Positions 22,714 through 25,173 of a stretch of DNA of 32,000 bases are shown in pieces. The stretch spans positions 19,632-51,631 of the forward strand of contig CAZECW010000033.1 of assembly GCA_964510585.1 (NCBI GenBank), read 5' to 3'. The DNA comes from an uncultured archaeon. GTDB taxonomy: Archaea > Asgardarchaeota > Jordiarchaeia > Jordiarchaeales > Jordiarchaeaceae. Position 1 is the stretch's first letter, and the number at the start of each line of letters is the position of its first letter. The position numbers and the translations under genes are program-made. The notes beneath the pieces were generated by a model that did not search any database, was not told the DNA's origin, and worked only from the letters and a program-made list of their open reading frames with translations.

Positions 22714-23700
22714 ATGAGCGCAACCAAATTGAAATTCGTTATTCCGAAAGGATCGCTACAAGATGCTACACTACAACTTCTCGAACAAGCAGGTTACAGT
22801 ATTAAAGCTGTAGAACGCTCCTACCGCCCCTGGATAAACGATCCAGAAATCAGCCTTAAACTACTCAGACCCCAAGAAATACCAACCCTAATTCAAGAGG
22901 GAGCACACGAACTAGGAATAGCAGGAATAGACTGGGTTAATGAGACAGGCGCCGACGTAAAAATACTTTCAGAGTTAGACTACGGTAAGGTTAGTATAGT
23001 AATGGCAGTGCCAAATTCTTGGGAAAAGATAAACAGTCTATCTGAGCTAATAAGAGAATTCAGCAGCAACGGAAAACCCATTCGAATTGCAACAGAGTAT
23101 ATAAACATTACCTCAAGATACATAATGGAAAACAGAGAGTATCAAAAACACTACGGAAACAAAACCCCGGAAGTAATAACACCTTGGTCCCGCTATGGAC
23201 AAAACCCAAATGTTAAAATTATGCTCTCCTTTGGCGCTACCGAAGCGAAACCTCCCGAAGACGCCGATGCCATAGTCGACAACACTGAAACGGGAACCAC
23301 ACTAAAGAGCAACGAATTAAAAATAATTGAAGTATTATACAAGTCACAGGCGGTGCTTATAGCAAACAAAAAGGCCCTTAAGGAAAAATGGAAAGAAGAA
23401 AAAATTCGAGATGTCATGACCCTCATTTTAGGCGCGGTAGAAGCTAGGAAAAAGCTACACATCTTCATGAACGTCAAAGAAGAAAACATTGAAGCACTTC
23501 TAGAGCAGCTACCGGCTCTTAAACGCCCAACCATATCACCGCTAGCAGGAGCTGAAGGATGGTTCGCATTAAATACTGTAATAGCTAAGGAGGACCTAAT
23601 TAAACTAATACCGATTTTAAGAAAATTAGCCCAAGGAATAGTAGTTCACCCTGTGCGGCAAGTTCTACCTCTGGAAGAGATAGAAAACAAAAAAATCTAA
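22714..23700 (+). CDS. hisG: ATP phosphoribosyltransferase (long form)
   Basis: IPKGSL, RPQEIP, GIAGIDW, LDYGKVSIVMAVP, RIATEY, GATEAKP, DAIVDNTETGTTL, PALKRPTISPL C-terminal regulatory domain. Confidence 0.96.
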   Translation: MSATKLKFVIPKGSLQDATLQLLEQAGYSIKAVERSYRPWINDPEISLKLLRPQEIPTLIQEGAHELGIAGIDWVNETGADVKILSELDYGKVSIVMAVPNSWEKINSLSELIREFSSNGKPIRIATEYINITSRYIMENREYQKHYGNKTPEVITPWSRYGQNPNVKIMLSFGATEAKPPEDADAIVDNTETGTTLKSNELKIIEVLYKSQAVLIANKKALKEKWKEEKIRDVMTLILGAVEARKKLHIFMNVKEENIEALLEQLPALKRPTISPLAGAEGWFALNTVIAKEDLIKLIPILRKLAQGIVVHPVRQVLPLEEIENKKI

Positions 23701-23795
23701 TTTTCTGAGACAGCGAAGTTTGGAAAAATTTTCAGAAACTAAATTACAATCCTCTTATTTTTAGAAATTTCCGAATATTGCCGTATTAGATTTAC

Positions 23796-24010
23796 TACTT
23801 AACTAGAGTGAATAGTTGACACTCTCCGCGACTAAAGTCGGGAGATTCTTGCTTCTGGCTCATCGGGAGCCTTAGGAAGCAATGGGTGTGCCATCACCCA
23901 GTTAACACGCCCTTCCCTCAAGGGAACGGCGTCTATGTTGGCACCCTCATGGGGGCTGCGTCTTATTTTAGCCTCTTAAGCCCAAGCCAAACCCTTCAGC
24001 TACCAACAAC
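23796..24010 (-). ncRNA. Candidate TnpB omegaRNA/reRNA scaffold plus flank-derived guide
   Basis: Stacked stems ACGCC/TTCCCT-TG-AGGGAA/GGCGT (23932-23907), TGGGTG/CACCCA (23900-23883), TTGCTTC/GAAGCAA enclosing GGCTC/GAGCC (23882-23849), then the right-end hairpin and TCAA. The 5' boundary is inferred from a TATA-like box. Confidence 0.6.
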
Positions 24011-24094
24011 TATTTATGTACCCTACTTTCAAATAAACTTTTTTGGCGATTCATCCCCACGACTTGAAGTCGGGGGCTTTCTCGCCAAGGTTTT
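23816..24094 (-). mobile_element. Non-autonomous IS200/IS605-family mini-element (PATE/MITE-like, 279 bp, no tnpA/tnpB)
   Basis: Minus strand, left end: TTAC | AAAACCTTGGCGAG-AAAG-CCCCCGAC-TTCAA-GTCGTGGGG. Right end: GAAT-CTCCCGAC-TTTA-GTCGCGGAG-AGTG-TCAA. GC 81/140 (58%) at 23821-23960 versus 17/60 (28%) at 23701-23760. Confidence 0.88.
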
Positions 24095-24186
24095 GTAAGA
24101 GGTTGTATAAACGCTTTTTAGGTGGTATTTTTAATAATCCAAGATGTATAGTTTTTCAAGAAGAGCCGACTCTTTTTCGACTAGAA

Positions 24187-25173
24187 TCAAAGACTACTCT
24201 CTATATCTCGAATCTGTTTCTCAATTTCTTCTTTTTCTCTAATTTTATCGTTTAATCTTTTTTCGTCTTCTAGTGACCCGAAACCTGCTTTAATCATAGT
24301 TTTAAGATCAATTATTTCTCTCTCAAGTTTAAGCTTTTTTGTCTCCAAGTTTGTTAGTTGAACATAGGCGGGGGCTCTATCCTCACTTGAAAGTTTTACC
24401 TTTTTTTCCTTTATGTAATCTAACATGTCGAGTCCAAGAGTTCTTAGTAGTTTTTTATCCTCCTCTGTTAGTAAACTATCAAGGTCAGACTCGGGCTTTT
24501 CCAGCCCCTCCTTTACACTTAAACCTTCTGCTTCGCTAAACTCTGCAAACTCTTTTTTGGTAGGCGCCTCCTCAATTTTTTCTGGAAATTCTTCCTCTTT
24601 GAGGCGAGTCAAGAATGTTGGAGACTCTCTAGGTTGCTCCACCGGTGGAGATTCGATTTCTATCATTTCTGCAGTTTGGGGAACCTTTTCAGTTAGAGTA
24701 GCTTCCTCAGGTTTTTCTAATAGAGGTTGTTGGTGTTCCCAGGTTTCAGGCAAAGGTTTTTCTTCTGGAATTTTTTCTTGGGTTTTTGTGAGGGGGCCTG
24801 TTTCGGGCTTTACGATTTCGGGGGCTACGGTTTTCACGAGATCTATTATTGCTTCAATTATATTCGCCACTTGTGCTCGAAGAGATTTGATTTCCTCTTT
24901 AACTTCTTTTTTAAGTATAGAAATATCTTCTCTTATTCCCATAATTTTGGAATCCAAATCGCCTATTTTCCCTAAAATATTTTCTGTTTCTACCACTGTT
25001 TCAGTCGCAGTTCTACTTTTTAGTCGCTCTTCTATTTCGTCGATTTTATCCATTTTTGTTTCCAGTTGTTGAATTCTCTCTAGAACCACTTTAAATTCAG
25101 TAGTTTTTTCAACCTCATTCAACAACTCATCAATCTCGCTTCTTAACTTATTTAGTCGCTCTCTAGTACTCAT
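24187..25173 (-). CDS. Coiled-coil protein with Pro/Glu-rich linker and C-terminal helical hairpin
   Basis: Heptad-rich residues 1-115, PE-rich middle, C-terminal LETKKLKLEREIIDLKTMIKAG...EKRLNDKIREKEEIEKQI; SD AGGAGTGGTGA. Confidence 0.8.
   Translation of the reverse strand: MSTRERLNKLRSEIDELLNEVEKTTEFKVVLERIQQLETKMDKIDEIEERLKSRTATETVVETENILGKIGDLDSKIMGIREDISILKKEVKEEIKSLRAQVANIIEAIIDLVKTVAPEIVKPETGPLTKTQEKIPEEKPLPETWEHQQPLLEKPEEATLTEKVPQTAEMIEIESPPVEQPRESPTFLTRLKEEEFPEKIEEAPTKKEFAEFSEAEGLSVKEGLEKPESDLDSLLTEEDKKLLRTLGLDMLDYIKEKKVKLSSEDRAPAYVQLTNLETKKLKLEREIIDLKTMIKAGFGSLEDEKRLNDKIREKEEIEKQIRDIESSL

Follow-up and report, generated by a model that had tools for sequence, protein, structure and literature searches.

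A probable IS608-type gene-less element with an omegaRNA-like tail, present in about 80 copies in an Asgard archaeal genome

RESULTS

A gene-less 279-bp element lies between two convergent genes

The window that we analyzed is a 32,000-nucleotide stretch of the genome assembly of an uncultured Asgard archaeon (Jordiarchaeaceae), and this assembly, which we call G000, comprises 3.78 Mb in 217 contigs. We considered a methane-cycling host but rejected this assignment because no McrA was found in G000; the TBP genes that it contains mark the genome as archaeal. Within the window, hisG (22714-23700, plus strand; Pfam HisG and HisG_C) faces a 328-amino-acid open reading frame (ORF) (24187-25173, minus strand) that matched no Pfam family at an E value of ≤0.001. 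Between these convergent genes, where the initial annotation had placed it, lies a gene-less 279-bp IS200/IS605 element (PATE) on the minus strand, with its left end at 24094 and its right end at 23816 (23816-24094). These boundaries were set by the roughly 80 copies of the element in the genome and by the exact gap in the empty alleles of three congeneric species (G003, G001, and G004). No gene resides inside the element, as the reading frames vary among copies and none is in Pfam. A stop-free frame antisense to the element is likewise unconserved and matched no Pfam family, and an Rfam scan of positions 23500 to 24400 at an E value of ≤1 matched no family, HgcC included.

The left end begins directly after the target TTAC (24095-24098), which is the left cleavage site (C_L) and belongs to the flanking DNA outside the element. 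The left-end module (24033-24094, element positions 1 to 62) is common to the tnpA-bearing copies, with BLAST identities of 92 to 97%. Within it, the left guide (G_L) AAAG (24077-24080) occupies the 4 nt 5' of the foot of the left hairpin; it is kept in the copies and is the same as the G_L of IS608. The left imperfect palindrome (IP_L; 24055-24076), CCCCCGACTTCAAGTCG(T)GGGG with a bulged T, was recognized from sequence and fold. An outer 7-bp stem predicted by folding (24043-24088; TTGGCGA at 24088-24082 and TCGCCAA at 24049-24043) encloses both G_L and IP_L, so that the left end reads ...CCTCTTAC^AAAACC TTGGCGA G AAAG CCCCCGACTTCAAGTCGTGGGG ATGAA TCGCCAA on the minus strand, with the caret at the element boundary. 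Both the 279-bp copies and the left ends next to tnpA retain the outer stem, and a C-to-T change in this stem leaves a G.T wobble in 6 of 29 copies. If formed, this stem would place the guide AAAG inside an internal loop.

Toward the right end, a TATA-like octamer (24013-24020) reads TACATAAA in the window copy and TATATAAA in the family consensus. A relic of the last tnpB codons (23880-23940; frame 3, ..GANIDAVPLREGRVNWVMAHPL..) was found by tblastn and by DNA alignment to the tnpB 3' end on contig C8. It falls within a conserved omegaRNA-like scaffold (23816-23949), the same range that our covariance model R1 matched (G000:C33:43447-43580). The scaffold holds hairpin A (23932-23907), hairpin B with the loop AUGGCA (23900-23883), and hairpin C (23880-23851), and the right-end hairpin comes next. 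The right guide (G_R) GAAT (23845-23848) lies directly 5' of this last hairpin, the right imperfect palindrome (IP_R; 23824-23844; sequence and fold), which is CTCCCGACTTTAGTCG(C)GGAG with a bulged C and is followed by AGTG. The element terminates in the 4-nt right cleavage site (C_R) TCAA (23816-23819), giving the minus-strand layout GAAT CTCCCGACTTTAGTCGCGGAG AGTG TCAA^CTATTCACTC.... By analogy with published TnpB biology (PMC10055086), the 3' flank (23800-23815) is the putative guide template of an omegaRNA that would read through the right end.

The two bulged hairpins are nearly identical, lie in direct orientation on the same strand, and are kept in all copies; there are no terminal inverted repeats. 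Folded as single-stranded RNA, the element scored far better than shuffled controls (z = -5.5). RNAalifold on 29 copies was uninformative because they show too little variation, and the program cross-paired the left and right hairpins.

The ends carry the IS608 guide and cleavage code

In IS608, C_L is TTAC, G_L is AAAG, G_R is GAAT, and C_R is TCAA, with each guide formed by the four bases 5' of a hairpin foot (PMC3201880; PMC5934647). The initial annotation had named this IS608 code, which agrees with the published one (PMC5934647, Fig. 1 legend), and had assigned TTAC, AAAG, GAAT, TCAA, the two hairpins, and the outer stem to minus-strand coordinates that proved exact. The element thus shares with IS608 (ISHp608 of Helicobacter pylori) an identical four-tetranucleotide code, bulged subterminal hairpins, and insertion 3' of TTAC without duplication. 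However, IS608 is bacterial and carries tnpA and tnpB, while the 279-bp element is archaeal and has neither gene. The distance from TTAC to the foot of the left hairpin is 18 nt here versus 19 nt in IS608, and the foot of the right hairpin is 4 nt from TCAA versus the 10 nt given for the TCAA site of IS608. The outer stem around the left guide and hairpin is a feature of the 279-bp element and an apparent difference from IS608.

The guide and cleavage sequences of related right ends allowed us to examine this code beyond the window's genome. Among right ends collected from the genus and the phylum, GAAT occurred with TCAA in 16, GAAC with TCAG in 4, and GAAT with CCAA in 1; locus L165 is a fifth GAAC/TCAG right end, which we identified by eye. 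The guide and the cleavage site change together, with the fourth bases going from T:A to C:G and the first position from G.T to G-C, and such paired changes are expected if the guide and the cleavage site base pair with each other. The stem of IP_R also covaries across genomes (CGAC/GTCG, CGGC/GCCG, and CAGC/GCTG). The loci L158, L159, and L163 to L166 (G034, G005, G047, G062, and G023) make up a sub-lineage of the same insertion sequence family that ends in TCAG and has the right guide GAAC (TAAC in L166). This sub-lineage is a natural "reset" of the right guide and cleavage pair. The mini-element L135 of G004 ends in TCAG and still has the guide GAAT.

The element belongs to a family of about 80 copies that follow TTAC

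BLAST of the element against G000 returned 140 pieces, including 29 full-length copies at 90 to 100% identity and half copies that are cut off at contig ends. From the junction counts of the 279-bp family (81 left and 73 right), we estimate about 80 copies, which make up about 0.6% of the genome, a recurrence well outside what chance would give. The 279-bp repeat contains 90 of the 434 contig ends, with overlaps of about 138 to 141 nt, and the family therefore accounts for much of the fragmentation of the assembly. The full-length insertion sequence copies in the G000 assembly are all broken.

Sibling copies had been expected to follow TTAC, and they do so almost without exception. When the related left ends of full-length copies are counted with the family, 90 of 91 left junctions have TTAC (86 in the standard arrangement and 4 with a left end that is 1 base shorter), and the last has a mutated TCAC. 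TCAA terminates all 75 right ends. The 3' flanks of the copies are mutually unrelated, and target duplication is absent. Position -5 of the target shows a mild preference for T. We also noted a bias beyond the TTAC rule at the first base after the element, which is A in 43 of 73 copies and G in a single one; a preference of TnpA or a target preference of TnpB could underlie this bias. The copies differ from the consensus at a median of 9 of 275 positions, which argues that the burst was not very recent.

We reconstructed 26 empty sites and found no long reading frame across the junction in 23 of them. This result is consistent with the survival only of harmless insertions, and it extends to the family what had been proposed for the window copy, namely, that it was inserted harmlessly. 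The orientation of the copies relative to neighboring genes showed no bias (9 to 9 upstream and 10 to 8 downstream).

Three congeneric species retain the empty site

The empty site had been predicted to read ...CCTCTTAC^CTACTCACTC..., and this exact junction occurs in G003, G001, and G004. In these three congeneric species, the flanks of the element align as abutting pieces, the gap relative to the window is exactly 24094-23816, and a single TTAC is kept, with the junction reading CAACCTC(T/C)TAC^CTACTCACTC. We did not find the whole 279-bp family in five congeneric genomes, where searches recovered the conserved core and related left and right ends but nothing more. These results show that the expansion is specific to the species lineage of G000, and the increase to about 80 copies postdates its split from the sequenced congeners.

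The same left end adjoins tnpA genes in the genome

The initial annotation had called for a tnpA- or tnpB-bearing relative with related ends, and the genome holds such relatives in pieces. Genes for a Pfam Y1_Tnp (PF01797) TnpA on contigs C7, C169, and C162 adjoin left ends that are 92 to 97% identical to element positions 1 to 62, and on all three contigs the start of tnpB comes after tnpA. On C8, the 3' end of tnpB is followed by a right end that is about 78% identical to element positions 182 to 279, and this C8-type right end recurs on C45, C54, and C152. The tnpA-linked left ends and the tnpB-linked right end together indicate a parent with the layout LE-tnpA-tnpB-RE, as in IS608. The 129-amino-acid TnpA of C169 has IS608 TnpA as its best match among solved structures (2a6m; E value of 1.6e-28 over about 125 amino acids, with moderate identity), and its HUH motif (DHLHLF) and catalytic Tyr/Gln segment (QKYIETQ) align with those of IS608 TnpA. 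The C162 tnpA is frameshifted at its N terminus.

The tnpB of the C8 type is represented by pieces at contig ends only; its middle is absent from the assembly, and the N-terminal piece on C7 is frameshifted. The C81-type TnpB looks whole, and its scaffold subtype differs from that of the 279-bp element. A search for related loci with TnpA, in which the window's lineage was left out, returned distant hosts only, at ≤73% identity, and no intact parent. We also observed on C81 (5075-6787, minus strand; the same frame as L038:1318-3030, minus strand) a 571-amino-acid stop-free frame in which a degenerate TnpA is joined to the complete-looking TnpB. In this frame the TnpA N terminus is missing, HUH has become YIQ, and the stop codon comes right after TCAA, beyond the right end. 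The frame represents an autonomous element that has decayed or, alternatively, a fusion of a TnpA remnant to TnpB.

The interior resembles a tnpB tail and its omegaRNA scaffold

The right part of the element adds a point that goes beyond the initial annotation. Frame 3 of the element (..GANIDAVPLREGRVNWVMAHPL..SRGECQ) matches the extreme C termini of the C8 and C81 TnpB ORFs (tblastn of these C termini against the element consensus, with an E value of about 1e-5 in a tiny database), and the last ~130 nt align at the DNA level with the tnpB 3' end and right end of C8. This homology identifies the element as an internal-deletion derivative. The alignments indicate that its right ~130 nt are what remains of a tnpB 3' end together with the right end, the region in which TnpB guide RNAs (omegaRNAs) are encoded.

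The congener G004 has gene-less mini-elements of about 200 to 265 bp (L135 to L140; contigs C178, C176, C124, C65, and C141), which have a left end, a scaffold of about 120 nt, and a right end as in the 279-bp family and an AT-rich interior that is different and shorter.

We aligned the 279-bp element with two tnpB-linked right ends and four of the ~200-bp G004 mini-elements and recovered a common structure of a two-part hairpin A, a hairpin B with the loop (A/G)UGGCA, a variable hairpin C, and the right-end hairpin. In this structure, 92% of the alignment cells pair, versus 34 to 49% in slid controls, and 6 pairs have changed on both sides, versus 0 to 1 in the controls. The scaffold hairpins are kept by compensatory changes, which count as few independent events because most stem from one split, that between the 279-bp family and the rest. 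Because the structured strand serves at once as the sense strand of the RNA and as the top strand for TnpA, G.U or G.T pairs do not distinguish a role in RNA from one in DNA. The invariant loop UGGCA can pair with a terminal UGUCA just before the end of the element. Distant relatives preserve the pairing despite changes on one side (UGCCA in L155, UGACA in L166, and UGGCG in L161 and L167), with L160 as an exception, and the pattern makes it a candidate pseudoknot.

Of 151 genomes sampled across the phylum, 29 (in 14 of 52 genera) contained a match to a covariance model of the scaffold. Nine of the 16 scaffold hits that we fetched overlap the 3' end of a tnpB whose product is 45 to 62% identical to that of G004. 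The loci at which the scaffold overlaps a tnpB 3' end are C8 and C81 in G000; L132 and L134 in G004; and the more distant L152 to L155, L158, L160, L162, L165, and L166.

Conservation within the 279-bp family bears on whether the interior still has a function. TnpA may need the ends only, and the region resembling a tnpB tail and an omegaRNA may be a decaying leftover of the same element that has no present role and is neither transcribed nor used by TnpB. We regard this as a real possibility, rated a little short of even. It fits with the TATA-like segment being the least conserved of the family (8.2% departures from consensus), with changes to the octamer in roughly half of the copies, among them the window copy. 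It also fits with the fragmentary state of the cognate C8-type tnpB, with the lack of a match in Rfam, and with the unbiased orientation of the copies, which gives no hint that they use host transcription. However, the scaffold (positions 85 to 255) is the best-conserved part of the element, with 2.2 to 3.3% departures versus 4.7 to 8.2% elsewhere, and its hairpins are kept by the compensatory changes described above. Moreover, the shorter mini-elements of G004, which are independent, keep the ~120-nt scaffold although TnpA needs far less of the right end; for IS608, RE45 suffices for complexes (PMC3201880).

Set against this leftover interpretation is a functional one, in which the copies would be transcribed and used by TnpB. 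Because conservation is lowest at the TATA-like box, tnpB is fragmentary, and the orientation of copies shows no bias, we treat transcription and TnpB use as predictions, and we only infer a promoter role for the octamer.

DISCUSSION

The locus was initially described as a mobilizable nonautonomous IS200/IS605 element, a description that agrees with the ~80 copies, the TTAC rule, the exact empty alleles, and the linked tnpA genes; mobility in the present-day genome is predicted, with presence or absence between species and the ~80 dispersed copies as indirect evidence. We conclude that the 279-bp element is very probably a gene-less IS608-type PATE that is moved in trans by TnpA and has an omegaRNA-type tail.

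We weighed two readings in which the repeat is not a transposon derivative of this kind and rejected both, on the basis of the distinct ends with their TTAC/TCAA code and the exact presence or absence at TTAC. It is very improbable that the family is a REP/REPIN-type repeat moved by a domesticated RAYT (REP-associated tyrosine transposase). Such repeats are also high copy, intergenic, and hairpin bearing, and the genome does encode a Y1 (PF01797) protein, but REPs of 20 to 40 nt occur as inverted pairs, whereas the 279-bp element has two distinct ends that follow guide and cleavage logic with TTAC and TCAA. In addition, the Y1 genes here are multicopy, lie in insertion sequence-like units beside the same left end and ahead of tnpB, and encode proteins closest to IS608 TnpA. 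We give almost no credence to a host structured noncoding RNA family or small-protein gene that merely resembles a transposon, since the strong fold and the near-full-length stop-free antisense frame in 10 of 29 copies are outweighed by presence or absence between species that is exact at TTAC, by copy lengths that differ by non-multiples of three, by an antisense frame that is interrupted in the other 19 copies and has no Pfam match, by the lack of an Rfam match, and by the absence of conservation at orthologous positions across the genus.

For the IS608-type element that we favor, a "peel-and-paste" mechanism can be proposed. An IS608-like Y1 (HUH) TnpA supplied by full-length copies would bind both subterminal bulged hairpins on the top strand and would locate the cleavage sites through the guides, AAAG with TTAC on the left and GAAT with TCAA on the right. 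TnpA would then excise the element as a single-stranded circle that could reinsert 3' of TTAC without duplicating the target. The copies that survive are located almost only between genes. The right ~130 nt (or ~195 nt with a structured 5' extension) retain the omegaRNA-type scaffold of the parental tnpB 3' end, and each copy could therefore be the source of a guide RNA in which the 3' flank of that copy serves as the guide. A TnpB nuclease that has TTAC as its TAM might use such an RNA in trans.

PATEs often encode omegaRNAs, which are necessarily used in trans by TnpB (Meers et al., PMC10055086), and PATEs have been described in Haloquadratum, with PATE-derived RNA expressed in Halobacterium (PMC4615843). 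Like the PATEs of Haloquadratum/Halobacterium, Geobacillus stearothermophilus, and Clostridioides, the 279-bp element consists of fused IS200/IS605 ends without an ORF and is presumed to be mobilized in trans. It differs from them in its lineage, in a copy number (~80, or ~0.6% of the genome) that breaks the assembly, and in its larger interior, which has the TATA-like box and ~195 nt of structured sequence. Our literature search found no description of the 279-bp family or of PATEs in Asgard archaea. PATEs, including omegaRNA-bearing and archaeal ones, are already published, and the family is a further example of modest novelty.

The scaffold can be compared in the same way with the TnpB omegaRNA (reRNA) of ISDra2-like elements, which, like the scaffold, has multiple stems and extends from the 3' end of tnpB across the right-end hairpin. 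The flank-derived guide, the TTAC TAM, and the candidate pseudoknot are the predicted counterparts of omegaRNA features in the 279-bp element. In contrast to that RNA, the scaffold of the 279-bp element is detached from tnpB, and its transcription, processing, and binding by TnpB are predicted. We propose, as a tentative idea that we think somewhat less likely to be right than wrong, that the family constitutes ~80 self-promoted mobile guide-RNA cassettes, each of which would use its own TATA-like box to make an omegaRNA with a private 3'-flank guide for loading in trans into one of a few TnpBs. If this is true, the genome has more than ten guide-only elements for each nuclease gene, and the elements need those nucleases to be retained at their sites. 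That copies still move today, that the TATA-like box drives transcription, and that the RNA is loaded into TnpB are predictions from the features described above.

The family provides a clean natural case of the IS608 guide and cleavage rule outside bacteria, with an empty allele, a strict TTAC, and the GAAT/TCAA and GAAC/TCAG pairs. For annotation, we recommend masking the ~80 loci as mobile elements and not listing them as small ORFs or new RNAs. For work on TnpB, the ~80 natural "guides" that adjoin a TTAC TAM form a test set for the supply of guides in trans by gene-less archaeal elements, and the second, shorter mini-element family in the sister species G004 adds to this set. G000 itself shows signs of further, more divergent mini-element families at C58:28415-28450 and C49:13544-13802, which have only the conserved core (..GTTAACTGGGTGATGGCACACCC..) in common with the 279-bp family or are about 83% identical to it overall.
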